Program-made: the position numbers and the translations under genes
Part shown: piece by piece, positions 1 to 46,553 of the stretch
Position numbering within the stretch: position 1 is the first letter of the stretch
Layout of the letters: every line of letters begins with the position of its first letter
Notes under the pieces: model-generated
Told to the model about the DNA's origin: nothing
Database searches by the model: none
The model's input: the letters and a program-made list of their open reading frames with translations, nothing else
Origin: Candidatus Gottesmanbacteria bacterium RIFCSPHIGHO2_02_FULL_39_11
GTDB taxonomy: Bacteria > Patescibacteriota > Microgenomatia > 2-02-FULL-39-11
NCBI GenBank assembly: GCA_001779195.1
Contig: MFJL01000019.1
Coordinates: 27,192 to 91,191, forward strand
DNA length: 64,000 nucleotides
Direction of reading: 5' to 3'

Positions 1-1863
1 TGCTGGTTGATAAGCCGTTTATGAATTGTTCCTTCAAGTTCAATTAATTTTGCCGATTCATCTTCTGTGAGACGACTGATGGGAATTCCGGTCCATCTTG
101 AAACAATTTCAGCGATGATATCGGGATTTACCACATTGGTTGTGGTCGACTTCTTCACAGTGTACTGCTCCTGGAGTTTTTTAAGATTTTCCTGACTATC
201 TGACATTTCTTTCTCAAGGGTATCGATTCTTACTTTGTCTCCCAGTTTTTGCGCCTCTGTTTTCTCATTGGTTAAGAGCTTAAGACGTTTTTCAAGACTT
301 TTTATTTCTTCAGGAAGAGAGATCGCGGGAAGTCTCACCGATGCTGCCGCCTCATCAATAAGATCAACTGCCTTATCCGGCAAAAAGCGATCTCCTATGT
401 ATCTCTGAGAAAGTCTGACCGCCGCTTCAATTGCCTCATCTGAAATCTTAACCCGATGGAATGCTTCATACTTATCCCGAATTGCCTGAAGCATTTCAAT
501 TGCTACATCAGCCGTTGGCTCAGGAATCAGAACCGGCTGAAACCTTCTCTCAAGAGCAGGATCTTTTTCGATATATTTCCGGTATTCCGTAACCGTTGTT
601 GTTCCAATTGTCTGAAGTTCTCCCCGGGCAAGAGAAGGTTTTAGAATGTTACTGGCATCCATGGTTCCTTCACTCCCAGATCCTGCGCCAACCATATTAT
701 GAAGTTCATCAATAAAAAGAATGATAGATCCGGCGCTTGCTTTAACTTCCTTTATCAAATTCTTAAGTCTTTCTTCAAACTCTCCTCTGTGTTTGGCACC
801 AGCTATAAGAGACATCAGATCCAAAAGCAGAATCCGTTTATGAAGAAGTGTTTCCGGGACATCTTTTTTGGCGATACGTTCTGCTAATCCTTCAACAATT
901 GCGGTCTTACCCACCCCTGCATCCCCAATTAGAACCGGATTGTTTTTGGTGCGCCTGGATAACACATGGATGATTCTTTCAATTTCATAGCTTCTTCCAA
1001 CAACGGGATCTAACTCTCCACGAGCAGCTTTTGCGGTTAAATCTTCAGCGAATTCCTCAAGAGATGATTTGGATTTATCATCTTCTTTTTTTCCAACTTC
1101 TGCCTTTCCCATTATCTTTTTACTCAAAACTTCTTTTGTCAGGCCGAATTTAGAAAGAGTCTGAGCAGCAACTCCTTCTCCTTCCTTAGAAAGGGCCAAA
1201 AGAATATGTTCAGGAGAAATAAATTCATATCCTAAAGTCCGGGCAGCAGAAAGGGAGAATTCCAAAATAAGCTTTACCCGGGGAGAGAAATGGGGCTGGC
1301 CTACAAAATTTCCCCGAGTGAATCCTTTTTCCAAAGCAGCCTGAATTTCAGAAGGAGTTGCTTTACACTCCGAAATAAGCTGATAAATACTTGCATCATG
1401 AAGAAGTGCCCATAACACATGTTCGCTGTCTACATATTGACCTTTAATTTCCTTAACTTTGGTAACTGCCGACATCAAAGCCTGATTGCTTCTTTGGGTT
1501 AAGCGGGACAACACATCCATTCCAACTCTTTTTTGCATATCGATACTGGAATGGTTGGGATCAGCAGTTGGGGTAGGGGAGACAGAGGCAGAAGGTGCAG
1601 AAGACGGCACACTATCGGGAGACGAAGATGAAGGAACACTCTCATTCTGTACATTAGTCGTCGTAGTTGTGGTCGAGGTGGTTTGAGGAATTTCAACGGC
1701 AGGGGGATTTCCAACTCCGTTATAAGAAACGGGATGGACGACAACCGGCTGACTCGTAGTTGTGCTTGTCACCTGAGTTGTGCTTATATCAACCGGAGTC
1801 TGAGACGGTTGATTTTCATCTTTTGGATTTTTCTTTAAAAATTTAGAAAAAGAGAATGCCATA
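1..1863 (-). CDS. Clp ATPase, ClpC/ClpB family (N-terminal part; C-terminal half lies off the window)
   Basis: The reverse-strand translation contains Clp_N repeats, the Walker A motif [23 protein letters not shown] and a short middle domain, and it reads into the NBD2 entry ...[29 protein letters not shown] at the window edge. The N-terminal extension of about 100 aa is S/T/P-rich and may be untranslated, with an alternative start near 1538. Confidence 0.85.
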
Positions 1864-1944
1864 GGTTTAACTGGACAAAAAATAATGCCTTACTTTAGTT
1901 AACCATGATCATAAGAAGTATGTCAAGGAATAGCACAAGAAGTT

Positions 1945-2032
1945 TAGGTAAAAGGTTAAAGGTAATAGACAAATTAATTGAGAAAATAATTTCATATATC
2001 TTTAACCTAGCACCTTTTACCTTTAACCTATT
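1945..2032. repeat. Inverted pair of heptamer arrays (AGGTAAA/AGGTTAA ... TTAACCT/TTTACCT) upstream of the PrgI-like gene
   Basis: The sequence reads tttaggtaaaaggttaaaggtaatag ... ctttaacctagcaccttttacctttaaccta. The same architecture recurs at 10707-10818 and 51570-51651. Confidence 0.5.
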
Positions 2033-2123
2033 ATTGTTTTCACGATTTTATATATGGTTAAGTAGTAGTCTGACACTAAACGAAATAGTTGCAGTAGGAT
2101 TTTTCACATTTTAGGCTAGAGGT

Positions 2124-3428
2124 ATGGAGCAACATCCGGTACCCAGAAATATCTCAGGATTCCAGTTTCGATTAATAGGGGATATGACCCTAAAACAGTT
2201 TGGGTATTTAGCCGGGGGAGCTCTAATCGGATATTTAATATACGCGGTTTTTCCGATTCCTCCTCTTTTTAAATATCCTCTTATTGCAGTCATTGTTTTA
2301 GGAGGAGTAGCATTGGCATTTCTGCCCATTCAGGACAGACCTTTGGATAAATGGCTTATTGCTTTTATCAAAAGCATAACAAGGCCTACTCAGTTTTTAT
2401 GGCAGAAATACGAAGAAGCTCCCGAGATTTTGACACGTCCCTATACGACCGCCCAACAACCGGTACAAGAAAAGCATGTTCAACTGCATCATGAAAGCAA
2501 CCTGAAGCTTAAAGCTTATCTTGCATCCCTTCCGCCAACTACACAACAGACGTATAATATTCACGAAAAACAGTATATTGATCAAACTCTTGCTCTTTTT
2601 GGTACTCCCGTTCCGATAATCCGAGTCCCTTCTCTTAATTCTTCAACGCCTAATCATCCTCACCAGGAGGAGAGCGTGAGACTTTCACAAGCACCTGCTC
2701 AAATTTTACCCAGTCAATCGATAAGAGTTGCCCCTCCGGTAATTCATCCGCCTCATATTCCGACGGTTATTCCAAGTCCTCCTGCGCAGCCGCCTCCCTC
2801 TATCCCGGTAACCTCATCTTCCCATCAAGCAACAGCTTCTGTTTTGGGAACGGTCAATAACTCAACCGATCCCAACACTGATGACAAGCTAAAACAGCTT
2901 CTTTCTGAAAAGGAAAATCTCGCACGGGAGCTTGAGATGCTTAAAAAGAAGATGGAGACCGAAAAAACAACCGTGGTTGTAAAGCCCCAATTTGCTCCGG
3001 ACATTGGGAATGAATCCACCGTCACAAAAGTTAAGGCTGAATCTGTTACTGATACCGTTGGAATACCGAGTCTTCCTCAAACTCCTAATATGGTTGTAGG
3101 TGTGGTTAAAGATCCAGGGAGGAAAATCCTGCCAAACATTATTATTACCATAAAAGATGCATTGGGTACCCCTGTCCGGGCACTTAAAACAAATAAGCTG
3201 GGTCAGTTTGCAATAGCCACTCCTCTTCAAAACGGAAATTACGTATTAGAATTTGAAGATCCCATGAAACGGTACATCTTTGAAAATGTACAAATTATTC
3301 TTAACGACACGCTTTTTATTCCGGTTGAGGTTTTAGCAAAAGGCCAAAGAGAAATTGTGCGTGAACAGCTTAATAAAGCAATATTTGGAGAATTAAATCC
3401 GGCACCTGCCCAAAACGGACTGATTTGA
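2124..3428 (+). CDS. PrgI-like (VirB3-like) T4SS membrane protein with a long C-terminal extension
   Basis: The N-terminal ~95 aa has the PrgI-family layout (FQFRLIGDMTLKQFGYLAGGALIGYL plus two TM helices). A Pro-rich linker, a coiled coil (KLKQLLSEKENLARELEMLKKKMETEK) and a C-terminal beta-sandwich-like domain follow. It lies directly upstream of VirB4. Confidence 0.55.
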   Translation: MEQHPVPRNISGFQFRLIGDMTLKQFGYLAGGALIGYLIYAVFPIPPLFKYPLIAVIVLGGVALAFLPIQDRPLDKWLIAFIKSITRPTQFLWQKYEEAPEILTRPYTTAQQPVQEKHVQLHHESNLKLKAYLASLPPTTQQTYNIHEKQYIDQTLALFGTPVPIIRVPSLNSSTPNHPHQEESVRLSQAPAQILPSQSIRVAPPVIHPPHIPTVIPSPPAQPPPSIPVTSSSHQATASVLGTVNNSTDPNTDDKLKQLLSEKENLARELEMLKKKMETEKTTVVVKPQFAPDIGNESTVTKVKAESVTDTVGIPSLPQTPNMVVGVVKDPGRKILPNIIITIKDALGTPVRALKTNKLGQFAIATPLQNGNYVLEFEDPMKRYIFENVQIILNDTLFIPVEVLAKGQREIVREQLNKAIFGELNPAPAQNGLI

Positions 3429-3458
3429 TTCTCATGTGAATGATTGAAAAGTAAATTG

Positions 3459-3491
3459 TCACTTTTAACTTTTACCTTTTAACTTTAAACT
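3459..3491. repeat. Heptamer array (TTTTAAC/TTTTACC) upstream of the VirB4 N-terminal ORF
   Basis: cacttttaacttttaccttttaactttaaact. Confidence 0.4.
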
Positions 3492-3496
3492 AAAGT

Positions 3497-4186
3497 ATGG
3501 CATCACCTATCGGAACACCTATTCGCGCATCTACTCAGGATTTTTTGGATATTCAAACTATTTTAGATGATATTATTGTGCTTCGAGACGGATCTTGTGC
3601 AATAGCAATTGAGACAACTGCCGTAAATTTCGGTCTTCTTTCTGAAGAAGAACAGGACGCTCTAATTTATGCATATGCGGCTTTTTTAAATTCTCTCTCT
3701 TTTCCTCTTCAGATTGTCATCCTTTCAAAACGCATGGATATTTCTCTTTATATTGAGAGAATTACACGGGAAGAAGAGCGGCAGGTCGATGAAACAGTAA
3801 GACAGCGGCTCAAAAGATATAAAGAATTTATTATGTCCATTGTCAAAGAAAATAGAGTTCTTGAGAAAAAATTTTATCTGGTTATTTCGTTTTCAGCAGT
3901 TGAACTGGGAGTAAAAGGCGCTTTTCAAACAAATAGTCAAAAGAAAAAATTTCAGTTTTCCATGGATTACGTTTTATCGCGTGCAAAAACATCCCTCCTT
4001 CCCAAACGGGATCATGTACTAAGACAAATCGGAAGAATAGGACTTAAGGGAAGGCAACTTACCACACAGGAATTGGTTGAAATATTCTATAATATTTATA
4101 ACCCTACGTTAACCGGAGAAAAATTGGGAGATGTCGCAGGGTACGAAACTGCAATGGTTACTGGACAAGGAAAAAAATCATCATGA
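3497..4186 (+). CDS. VirB4/TraE-family T4SS ATPase, N-terminal domain (separate ORF; likely frameshifted from the next ORF)
   Basis: FLDIQTILDDIIVLRDGSCAIAIETTAVNFGLLSEEEQDALIYAYAAFLNSLSFPLQIV matches the conserved VirB4 N-terminal region. It overlaps the next ORF by 4 nt, ending in GQGKKSS just after an A7 run. Confidence 0.6.
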   Translation: MASPIGTPIRASTQDFLDIQTILDDIIVLRDGSCAIAIETTAVNFGLLSEEEQDALIYAYAAFLNSLSFPLQIVILSKRMDISLYIERITREEERQVDETVRQRLKRYKEFIMSIVKENRVLEKKFYLVISFSAVELGVKGAFQTNSQKKKFQFSMDYVLSRAKTSLLPKRDHVLRQIGRIGLKGRQLTTQELVEIFYNIYNPTLTGEKLGDVAGYETAMVTGQGKKSS

Positions 4187-6099
4187 ATTTCTCTTTTACA
4201 CCTAAAAAACAAAAACAATCAATTACCCCGGGAGAAGTTTCTAAAGTTGCAATCTCACCTAAAAATCCCGTCCCTGTGCCTGCCGGTGGTACGTCTAAAC
4301 TTGGTAGGGCAGGGGCTATTTCTCCGCAACTGAGAACTGAGGTAAATCATTATGTAAAGGGAACGGTAAATGTAAGAGATATTATCGCTCCCTCTTATGT
4401 AGAGGTAGACTTTGACAATATACGGGTTAACAATACGTATTATCGGACTCTTTTTGTCTCCGGATACCCGAGATATGTCTCTGCTAACTGGCTTCATCCG
4501 GTTCTTTCATTTGACCGGTCTCTTTTTATATCCATGTATATTTATCCTACAGAATCAAAAGTTATTTTAGAGGATCTTAAACGGAAAATCGCGGAGATGG
4601 AAGCAACCATTCAGGTGGATATGAAACGGGGGAAAGTAGTTGATCCCTCAGTCCAAGTAGCACTCGATGATGCTCTGAGCCTTCAGGCACAGCTTGCCAA
4701 AGGCGCTGAAAGATTTTACCAGTTCGGCCTATACGTCACCATTCCCTCCGAGGCAATTGATGATCTTAACCGAATGAGTAAGGAGGTTGAAGCAACTTTA
4801 GGTTCCCTCCTTATTATTCCTAAACACGCAACTCTTTCTCAGGAGGAAGGATTTAAATCAACTCTTCCTATGGGACTGGATAAGCTGGATGTAACCCGCA
4901 ATATGGACACTACGTCTCTTGCTACAACTTTTCCCTTTACCACAGCTTCACTTACTCAAAATGAAGGGATTTTGTATGGAATAAATGAACATGACGGGTC
5001 CCTGGTAATCTTTGACCGGTTTAGCCTCGAGAATTCAAACTCGGTTGTATTTGGAAAATCAGGAGGAGGAAAAAGCTTTCTGGTAAAACTTGAAACTATG
5101 AGACATCTTATGTTTGGAACAGAGGTTTTTGTCATTGATCCGGAAGGGGAATACACAGAGCTTACCAAAGTTATAGGAGGAGAGCTCATCAACTTCTCTT
5201 TTAATTCTCCCATTAAAATAAACCCTTTTGATTTATCCGGAGTTTATATAGAAGGAGAGAATGAGTTAGGACTTAAAATCCTTTCTCTGCATGCTCTGAT
5301 GCGGGTTATTATGGGAGATATTACTCCGGGAGAAGATGCGATTTTGGATCGGGCCCTAGTATTAACCTACAAACAAAAGGGGATTACTCCGGATCCGGGA
5401 ACTCAAAAAAACGAACCTCCTCTTATTGAGGATTTATATAAAGTTCTTATGGGAATGGAAGAAGATCACGCCAAATCCCTTGCTGAAAGGCTTGAAAAAT
5501 TTGTGAGGGGAAGTTTGGCTGGAATTTTTAATCAAAAATCAAATTTGGATCTGAAAAATCCTCTTACGGTTTTTAATGTTAAGGAGTTGGAAGCTGAGCT
5601 TCGACCGATTGCCATGTTTATAATTCTGGATCATATCTGGACAAAAATAAAAAAAACGATTAAAAAACGAATCATGGTTGTGGATGAGGCATGGTACCTG
5701 ATGAAACATCCTGATTCCGCAACTTTTCTTTATGGAATTGCTAAACGCGCCCGCAAGTACTACCTGGGGGTCACAACCATTACTCAGGATGTCGAAGATT
5801 TTCTATCAACAGATTACGGAAAAGCCATCATCACCAACTCATCTCTTCAAATTTTATTAAAACAGTCGCCGGCTGCAATTGAAAAACTCGCCCAGGTTTT
5901 TTACCTATCAGGAGGAGAAAAGCATTTTCTTCTTTCTGCAAATGTGGGAGAGGGACTTTTTTTTGCCGGCTCATCCCATGCCGCAATTCAAATTATTGCC
6001 TCTCCTGAAGAGTATCATTTGGCAACCTCAAAGCCTCAGGACATGGAAGATAAACCTCTTCCCATTTCCCATACCCCCGGACCCTCTCCTGCAGTATAA
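4183..6099 (+). CDS. VirB4/TraE/PrgJ-family T4SS ATPase (ATPase domain)
   Basis: Walker A is FGKSGGGKSF, Walker B is IMVVDEAWYLM, and the VirB4 C-terminal motifs are present. Confidence 0.85.
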   Translation: MNFSFTPKKQKQSITPGEVSKVAISPKNPVPVPAGGTSKLGRAGAISPQLRTEVNHYVKGTVNVRDIIAPSYVEVDFDNIRVNNTYYRTLFVSGYPRYVSANWLHPVLSFDRSLFISMYIYPTESKVILEDLKRKIAEMEATIQVDMKRGKVVDPSVQVALDDALSLQAQLAKGAERFYQFGLYVTIPSEAIDDLNRMSKEVEATLGSLLIIPKHATLSQEEGFKSTLPMGLDKLDVTRNMDTTSLATTFPFTTASLTQNEGILYGINEHDGSLVIFDRFSLENSNSVVFGKSGGGKSFLVKLETMRHLMFGTEVFVIDPEGEYTELTKVIGGELINFSFNSPIKINPFDLSGVYIEGENELGLKILSLHALMRVIMGDITPGEDAILDRALVLTYKQKGITPDPGTQKNEPPLIEDLYKVLMGMEEDHAKSLAERLEKFVRGSLAGIFNQKSNLDLKNPLTVFNVKELEAELRPIAMFIILDHIWTKIKKTIKKRIMVVDEAWYLMKHPDSATFLYGIAKRARKYYLGVTTITQDVEDFLSTDYGKAIITNSSLQILLKQSPAAIEKLAQVFYLSGGEKHFLLSANVGEGLFFAGSSHAAIQIIASPEEYHLATSKPQDMEDKPLPISHTPGPSPAV

Positions 6100-6108
6100 T
6101 AAAAGGGT

Positions 6109-7674
6109 ATGAGCGCTGCCCACGGAAAACAACCTACAGAGTTAACACCGGAACAAGAAGAAGAACAAAAACAAAAAGAGCGTTTTGCTCCTGATCGAAT
6201 GGAACAGGACACAGAGTCTGTTTTCTCCCAATTTTTCACTTTCGCAGCAGCAATGGGCTGGGGAAAAATAAAAGGGGATAGAGAACAATTTGAATTATTT
6301 CAAGCCATTTCTAATACTCATCTAAGCGAAGTGATTCTTGATCTTTCAAACCCACAAAATATAAAGGACGCAAGAGCTCTCTATGCAACTGTTAAAAAAG
6401 AATTTGATAGACAAAATTTTGATCCTAAAACAAAAACATATAAAAAAGCCACTGCGTCCAGAGGTTCTCTTTGGGGAAAAGCAACCATCTCAACTGACAC
6501 CCTTACAAAAGCTGACCAGCAAATAACAGTGGGGGAACACTTTCACTCTCTGGTAAATTCTCATGAAACAAACACCCGTATTGACCAAGCAGTCTCTATA
6601 TATGGAATTAAAAATAGAGAAGAATTTGTATCCTCTTTAGCCAAACATCTGAAGGAAAATAGCGGTAATTTTGATGATGCCATTCATACTGTTGTAAGAC
6701 ATCAGACTGCTCTTGAGAAAACAGGAAAAAAGGATGGAAACTTAAATAAAGAACAAGATAATGCATTAAACTCCTCTTACGAAAAATTTTCCAAACAGGA
6801 ATTAAAAGATGAGGCACGACAAAAAGCGGTTGAATATGGTGAATCCATTAAACCTGAGGCTGAAGAGGTGATGGTTAAAATCAAAGCAGGCTTGGATCCA
6901 GATCAGCTTCAAACAGAACTGAATGCAATCGGAAAACCGGTTCAAGAACCCGAGCCTCCTCCGTCTCCTATACAACCACCTGCTTCTGGTTCTATCTCTC
7001 TGGAGGCTCTTGGTTCCGGACAAAACGCACCGCATCCGGAAATGGACGAGTTATATGGAGAAATGATGGGGGAGAGTCCTACGGTTGTTGTTCCCGCGGG
7101 AAGTCCTTCTCTTAAGGGAGCAGTAAATGCCATTAATAATCCTCAAACTCCGATTCCACATATGTCTTCTGTATCATCTCCAGTAGGATCAGTATCGGTT
7201 AAAGGATTAAAAGGTCTTTTGGGGAAAGCCGCCGGTCTTTTTTCAAAACTTAAATCATTAGCTTCAACTCTTTCAAATGCTACGCTAGCTATTCCCGGGG
7301 TAGGAGAAATAGTAAAAGGACTTCAAATTGCAAAAAAAGTTCTGGATCGTATTCCTATTATTGGACAAGCGGTTAATAATGCGATTAATAATGCTTTTAG
7401 CACTCTTCTTAAAGTGTTTGGATTGTCACTTGCAGCAATTTTTCTTTTTCTTCTGATTTTTATAACCAGTTTCAGCGATCCCTCTACTTTGTTCTCACCC
7501 ACACCATCTAATTTAGGTGCATCAAACCCTTCAAATCTTTCCTGGAGTACATTTGAAAAAGATTATTTACAGCTTGCAGAGAAAAAAGAAGAAAAAGATA
7601 TTTCCTGGATCGAATTTCAAAAACAGTTTCTTAGCTCCTCAAAAATCTATCTTTCAGAGACTTCTTCCCGCTAG
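6109..7674 (+). CDS. Hypothetical protein with an acidic N-terminus, a Pro-rich region and a C-terminal TM anchor (T4SS-associated by position)
   Basis: The long ORF is translationally adjacent to virB4. A PEPPPSPIQPP stretch and a single C-terminal helix (LSLAAIFLFLLIFITSF) are present, and no recognisable family was found. Confidence 0.4.
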   Translation: MSAAHGKQPTELTPEQEEEQKQKERFAPDRMEQDTESVFSQFFTFAAAMGWGKIKGDREQFELFQAISNTHLSEVILDLSNPQNIKDARALYATVKKEFDRQNFDPKTKTYKKATASRGSLWGKATISTDTLTKADQQITVGEHFHSLVNSHETNTRIDQAVSIYGIKNREEFVSSLAKHLKENSGNFDDAIHTVVRHQTALEKTGKKDGNLNKEQDNALNSSYEKFSKQELKDEARQKAVEYGESIKPEAEEVMVKIKAGLDPDQLQTELNAIGKPVQEPEPPPSPIQPPASGSISLEALGSGQNAPHPEMDELYGEMMGESPTVVVPAGSPSLKGAVNAINNPQTPIPHMSSVSSPVGSVSVKGLKGLLGKAAGLFSKLKSLASTLSNATLAIPGVGEIVKGLQIAKKVLDRIPIIGQAVNNAINNAFSTLLKVFGLSLAAIFLFLLIFITSFSDPSTLFSPTPSNLGASNPSNLSWSTFEKDYLQLAEKKEEKDISWIEFQKQFLSSSKIYLSETSSR

Positions 7675-7731
7675 CTACTATTTATTTTCAATTCATTGGA
7701 TTTGAGTTCGTATGTCCATTACAATCCAAAA

Positions 7732-7832
7732 GATGGATCCCGGGTCAAGCCCGGGATGACAAAATATTTTTTATTGGTTTATTGGATTATTGGTACTTAT
7801 TGGTAATTGGATAATTGGGTTATTGGATAATT
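7732..7832. repeat. Composite element: GATGGATCCCGGG..CCCGGGATGAC hairpin plus a TTATTGG heptamer array
   Basis: The sequence is gatggatcccgggtcaagcccgggatgacaaa followed by ttattggtttattggattattggtacttattggtaattggataattgggttattgg. The hairpin matches those at 14940-14967 and 51163-51190. Confidence 0.6.
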
Positions 7833-7835
7833 TCC

Positions 7836-8945
7836 TTATCCTTGTACCCGTACCGGCATAATAATATGAAGAAATGTTGAAGCTGACTCACTTGACTTAA
7901 AGAGCCCCGGACTTAAGTTTCCGGATATTTCAAAAACTACATCTCCCTGTGGAAAATTATTAAGAAGATCAAGTAGAAACCGGTAATTAAAAGCAATTTC
8001 TGTCTCTTCTCCCTGAACATTTGCCTCCAAAACTTCCTCATCACCTCCAACCTGAGGAGTATTAGCAGAAAGAGTAATAGTATTTTTCCCAACTACTACT
8101 TTAACTACATTAGCAGACCCCCGGGCAAAAAGAGATGTGGTCTTAACTGCCTGAAGAAAATCATCTTTTTTTAATATCACTTTTGTTTTAAACCCTTGAG
8201 GAATAATTTTTTCAATAGTCGGAAATTCTCCATCTATAAGACGTGAGTAAATCCTCACTTGAGGAAGAGAAAAAACCACCTGATTTTTATCCTTTAATAT
8301 CGTAAATCCCACCTCATTAACTTTCATTTCCGTTGCAATCCGGCTTACTTCAGTTAAAGTAACCGCAGGAATTATACCTATAAAATCCTCGGAAAATTTA
8401 GGAATTGTGATTTTTTCAATAGAAAGCCGATATCCATCTGTTGAGGTTAAAGAAAAGGTGTCTCCTGTCGCAACAATGCGAACACCGGTTAATATAGGAC
8501 GGGCCTCATCTGTTGATGCGGCAAAAACCATCCGGGGAATAGCGGTCTTAATAACAGAGTAGGGGAGTCTTCGATCAAAAACTGTAACCTCGGGAAAGGG
8601 AGGGAAATCTTCAGGATTAGATGTTGCAAATGTGGCTTTTGTTTTCCCGCTTATAATTTTTAATTGTGTTGCCTCCTGAATAAACTCAAGTTTTTCCCCA
8701 TGAACACTTCCCACAAACTCACTAAGAATTTTTCCGGGTACTGTAATTTCTCCTTTTTCTTCAACTTTAACCGGAAGGGTAAAAACAATTCCAAGTTCCA
8801 GATCTGTTCCTGATAAAATAAGTTCTTTATCTGTTGCTTTTATAAGGATATTGGAGAGAATGGGAAGTTGAGCTCTTGTAGGAATACTTCTTCCGACAAT
8901 CCCCAGTGCTTTTAAAAATGATTCTTTCAAAACTACAAAATGCAT
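7836..8945 (-). CDS. dnaN: DNA polymerase III beta subunit (sliding clamp)
   Basis: At 369 aa it has the N-terminus MHFVVLKESFLKALGIVGRSIPTRAQLPILSNILIK typical of DnaN, and it sits directly downstream of dnaA. Confidence 0.93.
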   Translation of the reverse strand: MHFVVLKESFLKALGIVGRSIPTRAQLPILSNILIKATDKELILSGTDLELGIVFTLPVKVEEKGEITVPGKILSEFVGSVHGEKLEFIQEATQLKIISGKTKATFATSNPEDFPPFPEVTVFDRRLPYSVIKTAIPRMVFAASTDEARPILTGVRIVATGDTFSLTSTDGYRLSIEKITIPKFSEDFIGIIPAVTLTEVSRIATEMKVNEVGFTILKDKNQVVFSLPQVRIYSRLIDGEFPTIEKIIPQGFKTKVILKKDDFLQAVKTTSLFARGSANVVKVVVGKNTITLSANTPQVGGDEEVLEANVQGEETEIAFNYRFLLDLLNNFPQGDVVFEISGNLSPGLFKSSESASTFLHIIMPVRVQG

Positions 8946-42033: not shown

Positions 42034-43467
42034 TTAATGCTTCTGTTCTCCTCCTCCAAAAAATTTCTTCAAAGGTCCATGCTGGGTAGCCTGCTGGAAA
42101 TAATACTGAGTCTGCAAAGCTGACATTCCGGTTTGAACCGTCCCGGTAACCGGAGCAAATATGGTTCCCAGAGAGAAAGGTAAGGTTGGCTGAGGGTTGA
42201 AAGCTTTCTTAGCAGCGGCAACCAGATTGGGTGCTAAAAAGACTACACCGATTGCTAAAATATTATGGAAAATTCCCCCGGCTCCGACTCCCACAAAAGG
42301 AGGGGCCCAGGTGCTGACAGACGCTTGATTCTCTGAGCCTAGGAATGCTGCAAAGATCAATATTCCGGCCGTTGCCGGAAACACGACTAAATTGGCTAAA
42401 ATATTTTGTATCCATCCTCCAAACGCGGATTTACCGGGTATCGCCTCCTGAAGAAGAATAAACGGACCGAGGATAACGGAAATTAGTAGCTGGATATAGG
42501 AGTTTAGCAGAAGAAAGAAAAGTCTGACTAATGTAAAAAGAAACCCCCCAAAAATAAAAAGAAGTATGACTCCTCCTCCAGTGGCAATAACAGGTAGTGT
42601 TGCGACATGTGTAACTATTGCCGCAATTATTCCTACAACTCCCGCGCCGGTTGTAAGCTCTATTACTCCCAGATTATTGACAACTCCGGCCCAAAATACT
42701 CCGTTAATAAGTCCTCCCAGATCAGCATTCAGGTAAGCAGATTGAAGATTGGTTACGTCTGCTCCTCCGATTCTTCCCCCTGCTCCTGTGACCAGTAAGT
42801 TTATGAGAATTGCCATTGAAAAATACATAATATCAATCAAAAATCCGGCAATTGCATAGGAGAAGGTGATAAGAAGAAGGGCAACAACTATTTTAGGAAG
42901 CGCTGCCTGAATGGTGATTACCGTTTTAGGATCTATTTTCATCCTAAAAATAATCATAAATCCGATGATAAGCATGACGATAATAATAATGGAATACGCG
43001 ATATTGCGGGTCACTTTCCAGAAGGGAAGAAAAGTGGAAAGTGCTGAAAATCCTATCCCTTGAGCATATGCAGGCTTTACAAACCCGGCGTTATTTAGGG
43101 TATCGTGAACATAAGCAATTCCTGAGGCCGCGGGATTTGAGTAAACTTCCCCAATTAAGTTTGTGACATTTCCAAGAGCAGTTAATTTAGATTCACAGTT
43201 AGTTATATCTGTGCATCCGATTTTGTTTGTTAAATTATAAATTAAGGCATCGATTGTAAAACTTCCTGCCGAAAGGCCGCTTATACACGGCTTACCATTA
43301 TTATCGGCGGCACAGGCTTCTTCTTTTTGTTTCATATCATTTAGGCTGTTAACGTTCTGTTTATAGAAAACATCCTGAGGGTTTGCTGCGTTTACAGTTG
43401 AAGTGAATGAGACAAAGAGAGTAAAAAAGATAAATACAATAAAAAATAGGGGCAGTAGACGTTGCAT
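42034..43467 (-). CDS. Polytopic membrane protein, VirB6/TrbL-like (putative T4SS inner-membrane channel component)
   Basis: A signal peptide is followed by a Cys-containing extracytoplasmic domain and then at least 6 Gly/Ala-rich TM helices. It is immediately followed by the pilin-like gene array. Confidence 0.45.
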   Translation of the reverse strand: MQRLLPLFFIVFIFFTLFVSFTSTVNAANPQDVFYKQNVNSLNDMKQKEEACAADNNGKPCISGLSAGSFTIDALIYNLTNKIGCTDITNCESKLTALGNVTNLIGEVYSNPAASGIAYVHDTLNNAGFVKPAYAQGIGFSALSTFLPFWKVTRNIAYSIIIIVMLIIGFMIIFRMKIDPKTVITIQAALPKIVVALLLITFSYAIAGFLIDIMYFSMAILINLLVTGAGGRIGGADVTNLQSAYLNADLGGLINGVFWAGVVNNLGVIELTTGAGVVGIIAAIVTHVATLPVIATGGGVILLFIFGGFLFTLVRLFFLLLNSYIQLLISVILGPFILLQEAIPGKSAFGGWIQNILANLVVFPATAGILIFAAFLGSENQASVSTWAPPFVGVGAGGIFHNILAIGVVFLAPNLVAAAKKAFNPQPTLPFSLGTIFAPVTGTVQTGMSALQTQYYFQQATQHGPLKKFFGGGEQKH

Positions 43468-43522: not shown

Positions 43523-43939
43523 TTAAGTTTGGACAGCCGAGGGAATGTTAAAGTTGAAAATGTTCGGAACTCCCAGGAAGTTAGCAACTAAATTGAATAT
43601 TGCGTAAGCTGCAAAGACCAACAGAAGTCCCAAAAGTGCAGCCTGGATTTTATTCCGTGCCGACTCAATATTTCCTTTGTCTCCTCCTGAGGTGATCCAC
43701 TGAAATCCTCCCCAGAGAAGATAGACAAAGGCGATAAGTCCCGCTAAAAAGAGGAATAAGGAAAGAAGGCTTCCAATAAGTTTTCCTAAATCTAGGATTC
43801 TTAGTTCCGGAGGTGGAGGGATATTAATTGATCCCGAGGGGAAGGGTGTGTTGGATTGAGCGTGAACTCCTGGGACAACAATTCCGGACGTAACTGCAAT
43901 TGTTAATGTTGTGATAGCAGAGGACAAAGTTTTCTTCAT
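43523..43939 (-). CDS. T4SS pilin-like protein (VirB2/TrbC-like), paralog 1
   Basis: A signal peptide precedes a TM helix, the motif FQWITSGGDKGNIESARNKIQAALLGL and a second TM helix. Confidence 0.5.
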   Translation of the reverse strand: MKKTLSSAITTLTIAVTSGIVVPGVHAQSNTPFPSGSINIPPPPELRILDLGKLIGSLLSLFLFLAGLIAFVYLLWGGFQWITSGGDKGNIESARNKIQAALLGLLLVFAAYAIFNLVANFLGVPNIFNFNIPSAVQT

Positions 43940-44014
43940 ATATAAACAGATTAGGAGGATTTTTTTCTCTTGTCAAGAGATAAAAAAGTACTGAGGTAAA
44001 ACTTGCCCCAGTCT

Positions 44015-44341
44015 TCACTGAGTCGGGATTCTGAAAATAGTAATGGGAACCCCTGTGAAATACTCAATCAGTTTAAATATAAGGTACGCCCCAGCCATCA
44101 GAGCAATTCCGATAATCGCGTATGTCAGCGTCGATTTTGCAGATGCTACAGCTTTGGGGTCTCCTCCGGCTGTCAGGAACTTAAACCCTCCGACTAGAAA
44201 CATCACAAATAGAGCCAAAGCTGCAAGACTTACGGCAACCACCAAAATATTTGAGAATACAATCTCAAGGCATTTAATAGTCGGGACTTCTACCTCTCCA
44301 ACCTTTAACAAACATCCCGGAACATCATTCCAATTTTTCAT
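44015..44341 (-). CDS. T4SS pilin-like protein, paralog 2
   Basis: FKFLTAGGDPKAVASAKSTLTYAIIGI lies between two TM helices. Confidence 0.5.
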   Translation of the reverse strand: MKNWNDVPGCLLKVGEVEVPTIKCLEIVFSNILVVAVSLAALALFVMFLVGGFKFLTAGGDPKAVASAKSTLTYAIIGIALMAGAYLIFKLIEYFTGVPITIFRIPTQ

Positions 44342-44347
44342 AATGGT

Positions 44348-44689
44348 TTAAAAGAGTTTAGGAAGATTCAGATTTACTCCATCTCCGCTTGTAAGTCCCA
44401 GAAATTTTAAAAGGACAAGATATATTGACCACGAAGCAACCAGAATGATAAGCCCGATGATGGACTGCAAGATCCGTTCCCTGGCCTCCATCACTTTCCC
44501 TTTATCTCCTCCTGAGGTGATCCACTCCAGTCCTCCCCGAAGAAGCTGAAACAATGTCCAGATTGCTCCTAAGAATAAAATTATTCCCACCAGAGCTGAA
44601 AAAAACTTTCCAAAAGCAGCTGCGGAGCTTGCTTGGTCACAGTTAAGCCCGATTATAGCTGTATTACAAACAGGAGTTATGTTTGGCAT
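44348..44689 (-). CDS. T4SS pilin-like protein, paralog 3
   Basis: LEWITSGGDKGKVMEARERILQSIIGL lies between two TM helices. Confidence 0.5.
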   Translation of the reverse strand: MPNITPVCNTAIIGLNCDQASSAAAFGKFFSALVGIILFLGAIWTLFQLLRGGLEWITSGGDKGKVMEARERILQSIIGLIILVASWSIYLVLLKFLGLTSGDGVNLNLPKLF

Positions 44690-44693
44690 AGCA

Positions 44694-45182
44694 TCAGATT
44701 ACTAATTTTATTATAGCTTCTCCGGGATTAAAAATATTAAGCCCGAAAATATTTCCAACCAGTCCTACAAAGATATAGGAGACAACCACAATAAGAAGCC
44801 CAATCACCGCGTGAAGCATGCGCAGGCGCGCGATTTCCAAAAGCCCTTTATCAGCTCCGGCTGAGATCCACTGAAATCCTCCTATTATAAATTGTATTAA
44901 AAACCACAATCCTGCAATGATCGTTATAAATGAGATAATTCCGCTGACAAGCTGATTTAAGGAGTTTGCAACCTGAGTATTTTGATCAGTAGTATTGTTA
45001 GAATTTAAGATTCCGCAAATAATGTTTCCAATTGGGCCCATCCCTCCTCCGCATCCTATACCTTGGGTATTTGGTCCTGCTGGAGTTTGTGCAAAAGCTT
45101 TTGGAATCCCAATCAAATGAACTAAGCCGACAAAAAAAATAATAATTAAAGCAGAAATAATAATATTTAAGTATTTACTCAT
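44694..45182 (-). CDS. T4SS pilin-like protein, paralog 4
   Basis: FQWISAGADKGLLEIARLRMLHAVIGL lies between two TM helices, with an N-terminal signal peptide. Confidence 0.5.
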   Translation of the reverse strand: MSKYLNIIISALIIIFFVGLVHLIGIPKAFAQTPAGPNTQGIGCGGGMGPIGNIICGILNSNNTTDQNTQVANSLNQLVSGIISFITIIAGLWFLIQFIIGGFQWISAGADKGLLEIARLRMLHAVIGLLIVVVSYIFVGLVGNIFGLNIFNPGEAIIKLVI

Positions 45183-45619
45183 GGTGTTGGTGTAATAGTA
45201 GGATTAAGAATTGCGGTAACATTTCCATACAGAACAAGCCCGATAATTGCAGCTACCAGAAATGATGCCACAATGATAATAAGTCCTACCAGGGACTGCC
45301 AGATACGTGTCCAGGCTGATGCAACCTTTTTGCTATCCCCGGAAGCGCTCATAAAATCAAATCCGGCTATAATAAAATTTAAAAAAGTCCACAAGCCGGC
45401 AACGATAAAAATAATCCGAAGAACCAGGTTCATCAGAATGACAACTGCGGTAAGTTGTCCCGTATCACTAATTGGGGGTGTTGAGAAAAGTCCGCCGAAT
45501 CCGGTGGGATTGATTGTCCCAATCGGATCTCCCTGAGCGTAGACAGGAGTAGAAAGCGAAAGGGAGAAAGAGAGAAGAAGCGAAAAAAAAATAATTGTTA
45601 TAGATGACAAACGATTCAT
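45179..45619 (-). CDS. T4SS pilin-like protein, paralog 5
   Basis: FDFMSASGDSKKVASAWTRIWQSLVGL, with an N-terminal signal peptide ending in the AQG cleavage context. Confidence 0.5.
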   Translation of the reverse strand: MNRLSSITIIFFSLLLSFSLSLSTPVYAQGDPIGTINPTGFGGLFSTPPISDTGQLTAVVILMNLVLRIIFIVAGLWTFLNFIIAGFDFMSASGDSKKVASAWTRIWQSLVGLIIIVASFLVAAIIGLVLYGNVTAILNPTITPTP

Positions 45620-45969
45620 CCGAATACTCCTCCAAAAGGTTTTCCTGTAAGGTTATTTATTATCTGAAGTATCCAGAGGGAGGCAAACATAATAATGAGT
45701 CCTATCACCGCATATGTCAGAATCATTTTTCTGCTCTCCGATGCATGAGGGTCTCCTCCGGCATTTGAGATCACTCCAAATCCCGCAATAACTACGATAA
45801 AAAAGCACAAAATGCCGCCGGCAAGTAAAAATAGGGGAACAAAAAAAGACACAAATCCCCCGATTGAACCAAAAGCCGGATTTTTCGCGATAGGAAAAAT
45901 TTTTCCGATATCTACTCCACCTGTAGGCATTCTAAATTTAGAATAAGGGGGAACAGGGAGGTTTGTCAA
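45616..45969 (-). CDS. T4SS pilin-like protein, paralog 6
   Basis: FGVISNAGGDPHASESRKMILTYAVIGL. The start may be at the internal Met (MPTGG). Confidence 0.45.
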   Translation of the reverse strand: MTNLPVPPYSKFRMPTGGVDIGKIFPIAKNPAFGSIGGFVSFFVPLFLLAGGILCFFIVVIAGFGVISNAGGDPHASESRKMILTYAVIGLIIMFASLWILQIINNLTGKPFGGVFG

Positions 45970-45998
45970 ATAAGAGAAAGAGCCGTATACTTCTAGGT

Positions 45999-46553
45999 AT
46001 GAAACCAGGCAGATGTGAAGAAAAAGAGTTGGTAGAAAATATACTGAAAGGAGAAGAGTCCTCCCTGCGAAAGTTTTATGACACTTACTATCGTCCTATT
46101 CTTTCCTTTATCAGAAAGAGGATAAACAGTGAAAATGATGTAGAGGAAGTTTTGCAGGATACCCTCTTAGGAGCGCTTGATTCATTCCGGGATTTCTCTT
46201 TCCGCTGTTCCATATTTACTTTTTTATGCAGTATCGCAAGTCATAAAGTGATTGACTATTACAGAAGAAAGAAAATAAAAAATATCGTTTTTTCTAAAAT
46301 TCCGGATGTGGAGGAAATACTGGGAACACTTTTAGGTCCTGAAGAAATTTTAGACCATGAAATGCTTAAAAGTAAGATAAAAAAAACTCTTTTATCTCTT
46401 TCTCCCATGTATCAGAAAATTATAGACTTAAAATATATTCAAGGCTATACCGTTTCTGAGATTGCCGAAAAATTATCGTTATCATTTAAAAGCTGCGAAA
46501 GCCATCTGTTTCGTGCTCGGAAAGCATTTGTCGTGGCTTTTGAGAAAAAGTAA
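45999..46553 (+). CDS. RNA polymerase sigma-70 factor, ECF subfamily
   Basis: Region 2 (VEEVLQDTLLGALDSFRDF) and region 4 HTH (GYTVSEIAEKLSLSFKSCESHLFRARKAF) are present. The start is taken at the Met of MKPGRCEEKE to avoid overlap with the divergent pilin gene. Confidence 0.78.
   Translation: MKPGRCEEKELVENILKGEESSLRKFYDTYYRPILSFIRKRINSENDVEEVLQDTLLGALDSFRDFSFRCSIFTFLCSIASHKVIDYYRRKKIKNIVFSKIPDVEEILGTLLGPEEILDHEMLKSKIKKTLLSLSPMYQKIIDLKYIQGYTVSEIAEKLSLSFKSCESHLFRARKAFVVAFEKK

Follow-up and report, generated by a model that had tools for sequence, protein, structure and literature searches.

VirB3 is the smallest and least elaborated of the core subunits in a type IV secretion system (T4SS), and reviews define it by its small size. 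In particular, VirB3 proteins are of 10-15 kDa (PrgI of pCF10 has 117 residues) and consist of two transmembrane (TM) helices with short cytoplasmic N- and C-termini (PMC12857230). In VirB3 of R388, helices alpha2 and alpha3 cross the membrane and the remainder of the protein wraps the N-domain of VirB4 (PMC9259494); natural VirB3-VirB4 fusions also exist (PMC12857230; PMC12624023). The T4SS of Patescibacteria is MPF-FATA-derived and lies near the origin; it comprises TrsD, PrgI and VirB4, in most cases without a relaxase, and arrays of VirB2-like pilins occur along with it; TrsD is a remote homologue of the VirB4 N-terminus, and the survey of these systems reports no VirB3-VirB4 fusions (PMC12102498). 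Here we describe a gene, which we refer to as prgI-long, in a 64,000-nucleotide stretch of the genome of Candidatus Gottesmanbacteria bacterium RIFCSPHIGHO2_02_FULL_39_11 (contig MFJL01000019.1, positions 27,192 to 91,191; hereafter the window). The product of this gene, 434 amino acids (aa) in length, is a PrgI/VirB3 protein that carries a long tail predicted to end in a folded domain.

The first 100 residues of the protein (the N-module) are a canonical two-helix PrgI hairpin. Residues 5-90 match the Pfam family PrgI (PF12666) over profile positions 1-88 of 91 and score 39.7 bits, where the gathering score is 27. In an AlphaFold2 (AF2) model built on 119 sequences (mean predicted local distance difference test score, pLDDT, of 73), the two TM helices are joined by a tight Pro turn and the hairpin has a pLDDT of 96-97; the hydropathy profile peaks at residues 23-42 and 47-66 and nowhere else in the 434 aa. 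The hairpin is preceded by a nearly invariant N-terminus (residues 1-22, MEQHPVPRNISGFQFxLIGDMT) and followed by an amphipathic helix (residues 73-86) inside the conserved block PIQ[DE]RPLD[KR]W..F.[KR]S...PTQ..W.K. The protein thus has the family's sequence score, its conserved N-terminus, hairpin and C-terminal helix and its position upstream of virB4, and in these respects resembles PrgI of pCF10, TrwM of R388 and VirB3 of A. tumefaciens; like them it would anchor the VirB4 N-domain to the membrane and be present in six copies per machine. What it does not share with them is size. Canonical members have about 90-120 aa and short cytoplasmic ends (the initial annotation of the window, which a model made from the sequence, had put them at about 100-120 aa, in keeping with the 10-15 kDa of VirB3 and the length of pCF10 PrgI), whereas the protein described here has 434 aa, and its relatives (326-552 aa in 78 orthologues) have tails of 230-450 aa.

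That the PrgI module is fused to a long tail was proposed in the initial annotation, and the two do belong to one genuine gene. The sequence AGAGGT, which resembles a Shine-Dalgarno sequence, is located just 5' of the ATG, and the product is identical to OGG15654.1 / UniProt A0A1F5ZTJ4 from a Candidatus Gottesmanbacteria metagenome-assembled genome (MAG), which is labelled as a hypothetical or "PrgI family" protein; the identical protein is present on 3 contigs. A homologue search of a set of 5.8 billion proteins returned more than 2000 matches, the best 120 of which are 376-570 aa long, nearly all span about 97% of the query and, the three closest excepted, are 39-56% identical to it; the same architecture is found in 119 aligned full-length homologues. 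Moreover, when GTDB (one genome per species) was scanned with the motifs of the N-module, these were found in 353 species. Among the best 80 of these loci, the N-module and the C-terminal domain lie in one frame in 78 of the 78 open reading frames (ORFs) that are not cut by contig ends, each from a distinct GTDB species. The long-form architecture therefore recurs far beyond chance. The titles of the records name Gottesmanbacteria, Woesebacteria, Beckwithbacteria and Microgenomates. (Note that many contigs with the cluster, L006, L008 and L017-L021 in our numbering of loci and others besides, are titled "uncultured Gammaproteobacteria" or "Pseudomonadales", and one, L053, "Bathyarchaeia archaeon"; evidently these MAGs are misassigned in their records or come from contaminated bins.)

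We entertained the idea that a short prgI had been joined to an unrelated downstream gene by a frameshift, a misassembly or an error of gene calling, for which the sole hint is the presence of some short database entries (120-296 aa). An exhaustive phmmer search with residues 1-100 as the query yielded 1868 representatives at E<=1e-3, of which 1332 reach E<=1e-10. The C-terminal domain is present in 106 of the 108 listed representatives of at least 300 aa, and the remaining two are truncated fragments that stop just short of it. The shorter representatives are likewise fragments, because nearly all of them end inside the spacer of the tail or have frameshifted ends, as fragments from short contigs would. 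Given that independent assemblies carry the same single ORF, we rejected the idea of a frameshift or misassembly, and the chance that the gene is an artefact of any of these kinds is negligible.

The C-terminal domain (C-domain) is predicted to adopt a prealbumin-like fold of the CarboxypepD_reg/CnaB type, which agrees with the carboxypeptidase-regulatory or transthyretin-like fold suggested by the initial annotation. In the AF2 model, it consists of a short lead-in, a seven-strand beta-sandwich (strands within residues 325-404) and a capping helix (residues 408-424). A Foldseek search of the PDB with the C-domain matched CnaB2 (8bdw; E 1.2e-5, target-normalised TM-score 0.70), the B domains of UafA and SdrD and the transthyretin-like domains of carboxypeptidases N, D and M, as well as transthyretin, HIU hydrolase, the SusC N-terminal extension and teneurin; target-normalised TM-scores are 0.70-0.74 against the single-domain structures of CnaB2 and of the transthyretin-like domain of carboxypeptidase D. 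Consistent with these matches, 18 of 18 diverse C-domains match PF13620 (CarboxypepD_reg) at E<=0.01 (best 1.4e-8), with the match of the window protein, over residues 324-380, scoring 20.8-23.1 bits and thus below the gathering score of 32.3. Matches to solved structures at the level of sequence were no better than E=0.029 (an SdrD B domain). We also inspected the sequences for the isopeptide bond of CnaB domains, and rejected it: divergent orthologues have other residues in place of the strand-1 Lys, K329 (GQVMD, GTVLS, GMVLD), and the last strand (LPIEI) is without a conserved Asn or Asp.

The domain is strictly conserved. The sandwich motif R-A-L-K-T-N-x-x-G-x-F is invariant, with columns R352, A353, K355, T356, N357, G360 and F362 held from Gottesmanbacteria to Woesebacteria and Beckwithbacteria, and the core of the beta-sandwich is present in every complete orthologue. 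The domain shares with PF13620, CnaB, SdrD B and transthyretin-like domains the seven-strand fold and a hairpin motif, T/N-x-x-G-x-F; it differs from them in that the window protein falls below the Pfam threshold, in lacking the isopeptide triad, in residing on an inner-membrane subunit of a T4SS and in having the invariant R-A-L-K, which is specific to the PrgI-long family. A hidden Markov model (HMM) search of all ORFs in the window and all ORFs of 84 loci found copies of the domain in PrgI proteins only.

Between the two conserved ends, the tail begins with a conserved pair of helices (motif L..YL..LP...E..[YF]I...L.LF), which is recognisable, in divergent form, in distant orthologues. A Pro-rich spacer follows that has about 19% Pro in the window protein and low occupancy in the alignment. 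From the end of the N-module to the start of the C-domain the distance is 121-325 aa across the 78 species, and the median Pro content of this stretch is 13.7%, against 4.6% in the long ORFs of the window. The spacer leads to a charged amphipathic helix that is hydrophobic at 6 of 9 a/d positions in its best heptad register and is possibly a short coiled coil. Unlike the beta-sandwich, this helix is not universal: an HMM found it in 34 of the 78 orthologues, and it is absent, together with the last helix, from the short forms (those of the Woesebacteria and Beckwithbacteria types). The Pro-rich linker and charged coiled coil of the initial annotation thus correspond to the spacer and to one heptad-like helix, and the three strings quoted in it are all found in the translation: the Pro-rich string PPVIHPPHIPTVIPSPPAQPPPSIP at residues 204-228, the charged helix DDKLKQLLSEKENLARELEMLKKKMETEK at residues ~253-281 and VVGVVKDPGRK...YVLEFED at residues 324-378. 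The spacer is disordered in the model; the beta-sandwich of the C-domain is modelled with confidence, at a pLDDT of 90-96. (In the 552-aa orthologue of locus L019, at 6001-7659, the amphipathic helix is much longer, with a coiled-coil region of about 60 residues in the spacer, and this spacer, which is the longest, holds a hydrophobic motif twice, as HVFDWIFSLFQSKPQ and GLFDWFTTFFALRPQ; a similar motif, FDWI, occurs in the fragment P0154. The motifs of L019 might be short linear elements for binding or for touching the membrane.)

The gene is the first of four that run in the same direction (Table 1), and a TrsD-like gene and then virB4 follow directly 3' of it in 76 of the 76 loci with sufficient downstream sequence. 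In the window, the TrsD-like protein matches NCBIfam models of TrsD/TraD (4.3e-8) and of the N-terminal parts of VirB4 families (1.7e-9 and 4.7e-5), all below the curated cut-offs, and Pfam TraC-like is recorded on its orthologues. The start of virB4 overlaps the stop of the trsD-like gene (ATGA), and its product scores 400 bits with conju_CD1110, for which the cut-off is 325. In locus L055 (4174-6636) the TrsD-like protein and VirB4 form one ORF of 820 aa, and this directly attests to TrsD being an N-domain that has become separate from VirB4. We infer that the TrsD-like protein is the cytoplasmic docking partner of the PrgI module.

The bearing of the tail on secretion depends on which side of the membrane it occupies. 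The protein has two TM helices only, and its N-terminus and tail would therefore be on the same side; no third membrane helix was detected in 82 orthologous tails with 19-residue hydropathy windows, the highest of which correspond to beta strands or Pro-rich stretches, and none of the orthologues has a signal peptide. The mean number of Lys and Arg residues in the 119 sequences is 2.1 in the N-terminal flank, 0.4 in the 8-residue loop (with about 1 more where TM1 ends) and, in the stretch of 25 residues that follows TM2, 3.1. Every one of these sequences (100%) has more such residues in its flanks than in its loop, so that the positive-inside rule predicts an N-in/C-in hairpin. Moreover, the two flanks of the hairpin are the best-conserved parts of the protein, which fits binding to a conserved cytoplasmic partner, and their counterparts by homology are the segments of VirB3 that, in the structure of R388, are wound round the cytoplasmic N-domain of VirB4 (PMC9259494). 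Natural VirB3-VirB4 fusions, such as CagE-type proteins, likewise bear a C-terminal addition, showing that this end is cytoplasmic; they differ from the protein described here in that the part added here is not an ATPase, VirB4 being separate and itself split into a TrsD-like protein and the body of the ATPase. These findings suggest that the tail lies, with fair probability, on the cytoplasmic side of the membrane. The initial annotation had proposed a tether between the secretion ATPase and an extracytoplasmic binding module; the tether is a reasonable proposal, but the TM helices, the flank charges and the homology to VirB3 all speak against an extracytoplasmic location for the module.

The following observations weaken this reading. 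When the tail is ignored, as in older schemes for the positive-inside rule, the charge bias is small, at about 2 in the N-terminal flank against about 1.4 in the loop and the end of TM1. Extracytoplasmic domains predominate among the structural neighbours of the C-domain, which include stalks of Gram-positive adhesins, domains of the carboxypeptidase D type, teneurin and the N-terminal extension of SusC. Pro-rich spacers, furthermore, are classic envelope-spanning elements, as in TonB and VirB10. With respect to the last of these points, the ClpB-like protein encoded next to prgI-long has a low-complexity extension rich in Ser, Thr and Pro (if it starts at 1862), and the 521-aa product of the fourth gene of the operon has a Pro-rich segment N-terminal to its only TM helix (~434-456) and no signal peptide; this weakly suggests that such a composition is not diagnostic of an external site in this genome. 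We regard an outside location of the tail as unlikely, if not negligibly so.

Were the hairpin N-out/C-out, or the tail otherwise exported, the protein would present an envelope-spanning arm on VirB3, either VirB10/TonB-like or adhesin-like, in which the Pro-rich part would cross the wall, the helix would oligomerise as a stalk, and the sandwich would bind peptidoglycan, the base of the pilus or a host cell. We consider this arm, in outline and in these details, to have a minor though real chance of being correct. The nearest structural relatives of the C-domain are overwhelmingly stalk or regulatory domains of extracytoplasmic proteins, with PF13620 matching all members tested, and the order of anchor, Pro-rich spacer, helix and beta domain is that of TonB and VirB10, which, like the protein described here, are associated with an ATPase platform at the inner membrane. 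Homologues of VirB6 and VirB8 are scarce in Microgenomatia (PMC12102498), and monoderm systems are without VirB10, whose signalling role another component probably fills (PMC12857230). However, an outward arm needs a topology of VirB3 opposite to the one solved and reviewed, with the conserved positive flanks outside and the near-uncharged Pro turn inside, in orthologues that are all without a signal peptide or a third TM helix; the flanks could then not hold the cytoplasmic N-domain of TrsD/VirB4. Moreover, VirB10 and TonB have a bitopic topology, with a single TM helix, the N-terminus in and the C-terminus out, whereas PrgI-long is a two-helix hairpin; its beta domain is prealbumin-like and resembles theirs in neither sequence nor fold, and no VirB10 or TonB fold is among the top 50 Foldseek matches of the C-domain. 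The tail is also not needed as the outward part of the machine, because a separate locus supplies five VirB2-like pilins and a VirB6-like candidate. The more specific proposal, that a monoderm T4SS has in the outward tail its missing VirB10/TonB-like element, an envelope-spanning arm fused directly to VirB3, appears more doubtful still.

We lean instead, if only slightly, towards the tail acting in the cytoplasm as a tether, which would keep six binding modules at the base of the TrsD/VirB4 ATPase. The hairpin would cross the membrane twice, as in solved VirB3, and the conserved N-terminus together with the helix after TM2 would clasp the cytoplasmic N-domain of TrsD/VirB4, with six copies per machine. 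The tail would then emerge into the cytoplasm as a flexible leash of some 120-325 residues and would keep six small beta-sandwich modules, each with its invariant basic/polar loop, close to where the VirB4 barrel has its base or entrance. In this place they may capture or scaffold a partner, or scaffold the platform itself. The partner might be a substrate or adaptor (no coupling protein or relaxase is encoded beside the cluster, in that the four operon genes match no relaxase or coupling-protein family), VirB4 by its distal face, or the 521-aa protein encoded next to it. The variable length of the spacer argues for a reach function rather than a fixed strut, and that the sandwich is so strictly conserved points to a specific ligand. 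A precedent for such an arrangement is FtsK, in which a long Pro/Gln-rich cytoplasmic linker connects a membrane anchor to a functional cytoplasmic module; there is no homology between the two proteins, and the module here is a beta-sandwich of about 85 residues, not a motor. Against a tether of this kind, no partner of the tail has been identified, and the amphipathic helix, which is confined to part of the lineage, cannot be essential to the mechanism.

The tail might also be cytoplasmic and have no ligand, serving as a bulky spacer, a steric fence or an aid to oligomerisation that organises the six copies of VirB3. The disorder of the spacer and its highly variable length and sequence are compatible with such a role, as are the heptad-like pattern of the helix and the fact that we could not name a partner. 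The beta-sandwich, however, is as conserved as the membrane module, which is more constraint than a passive spacer needs, and many lineages are without the helix but none is without the beta-sandwich. A tail without a ligand is thus improbable, and we retain the tether as the preferred account of its function.

Table 1. Coordinates of prgI-long, the parts of its product and the associated genes (positions in the window; residues are those of the 434-aa protein).
Feature	Position	Strand	Basis or remark
Long-form PrgI/VirB3, whole gene	2124..3428	+	ATG start, 434 aa; exact database match and full-length homologues
PrgI/VirB3 module, residues 1-100	2124..2423	+	Pfam PF12666, conservation 0.83-0.97, AF2
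TM1, residues 23-42	2190-2249	+	AF2 helix, hydropathy
TM2, residues 47-66	2262-2321	+	AF2 helix, hydropathy
Helix-loop-helix, residues 116-159	2469..2600	+	AF2 helices 116-135 and 140-159, pLDDT 83-88
Pro-rich disordered spacer, residues 160-250	2601..2873	+	pLDDT 44-61, without secondary structure
Charged amphipathic helix, residues 252-281	2877..2966	+	AF2 helix, pLDDT 80-91
C-terminal domain, residues 296-424	3009..3395	+	AF2, Foldseek, PF13620, invariant columns
Predicted seven-strand prealbumin-like beta-sandwich, residues 321-405	3084-3338	+	pLDDT 90-96
TrsD-like protein, 229 aa, without TM helix	3497..4186	+	NCBIfam matches below threshold
VirB4-like ATPase, 638 aa	4183..6099	+	NCBIfam conju_CD1110, Pfam P-loop_TraG
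Fourth operon gene, 521 aa	6109..7674	+	Without family match
ClpB/ClpC-like AAA+ gene	1-1862 (runs past window start)	-	Divergent from prgI-long
477-aa protein directly downstream of pilin array	42034-43467	-	Signal-peptide-like N-terminus, about 7 hydrophobic helices
T4SS_pilin array, five tandem genes (138, 113, 162, 146 and 117 aa)	43523-45969	-	Pfam PF18895
ECF-type sigma factor gene	45963-46553	+	Sigma70_ECF, r2, r4

The surroundings of the operon identify the locus as a chromosomal, origin-proximal T4SS of the Patescibacteria type in a genome of the Gottesmanbacteria (Microgenomatia). The genes dnaN, dnaA, rnpA and yidC lie on the other side of the operon from the clpB-like gene, the order clpB-like / prgI-trsD-virB4-ORF / dnaN dnaA is shared with other genomes, and the layout, with the cluster near dnaA/dnaN and an array of pilin genes, is the one described for these systems, as far as the partial annotation of the window goes. 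The array lies about 40 kb away from the VirB3-TrsD-VirB4 cluster, and VirB2-like pilin arrays such as this one have been reported for Microgenomatia and Saccharimonadia: three of its five genes match PF18895 above the gathering threshold and two just under it, each product shows the pair of hydrophobic helices that typifies VirB2, and an N-terminus resembling a signal peptide is present in most. The 477-aa protein encoded next to the array has no Pfam match even at E<=1 and is, by position and topology, a candidate for the divergent VirB6 that searches with profiles seldom recover in Microgenomatia. The gene for the extracytoplasmic function (ECF) sigma factor is divergent from the array, with an overlap of a few bases between it and the first of the pilin genes; the factor is possibly a dedicated regulator of the pilins.

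Several further observations concern the immediate neighbours of prgI-long. A gene encoding a protein of 485-500 aa occupies the position of the 521-aa gene in loci L001 and L003, and the 521-aa gene appears to evolve fast, in that phmmer recovers it in just 7 of about 80 loci. In loci L024, L072, L073 and L074 the VirB4 ORF has 1176-1276 aa, and these long ORFs may be fusions to the fourth operon protein. Orthologues of the clpB-like gene are unusually long (1290-1443 aa) and have the same position adjacent to the T4SS in other genomes; in the window, the ORF that starts at 1862 has a Ser/Thr/Pro-rich N-terminal extension of about 110 aa and low complexity, with an alternative start at 1538. 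Between the convergent ends of the T4SS operon (7674) and dnaN (7836) there is a GC-rich hairpin with an 8-bp stem (7737-7757) that is likely to be a bidirectional terminator, and a scan of positions 1500-8000 for promoters and terminators found nothing inside the operon above the expectation from shuffled sequence.

We found no description of a long-form VirB3/PrgI in the papers searched, in which the only enlargement reported is fusion to VirB4, and a 2025 survey of the T4SSs of Patescibacteria does not mention an extension of PrgI (PMC12102498). A whole class-level lineage of Patescibacteria has turned VirB3 into a protein of 330-550 aa with a tethered, strongly conserved domain of a binding type; close relatives of the N-module occur in no fewer than 353 GTDB species and some 1300 cluster representatives, and all complete orthologues examined have the long form. 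No T4SS before that of Patescibacteria had been shown to be essential for its owner (the demonstration being in Saccharibacteria), and in Patescibacteria coupling-protein genes are rarely found beside virB4, just as a relaxase is usually absent. A module leashed to the ATPase would be a concrete, clonable handle on what the machine binds, with residues 296-434 expressible alone. If instead the tail faced outward, the hairpin would be oriented opposite to that of every characterised VirB3, and the finding would bear on which element takes the place of VirB10 in monoderm systems; in Microgenomatia, an arm of this sort could link the VirB4 ATPase platform with the wall, the base of the pilus or the surface of a host.

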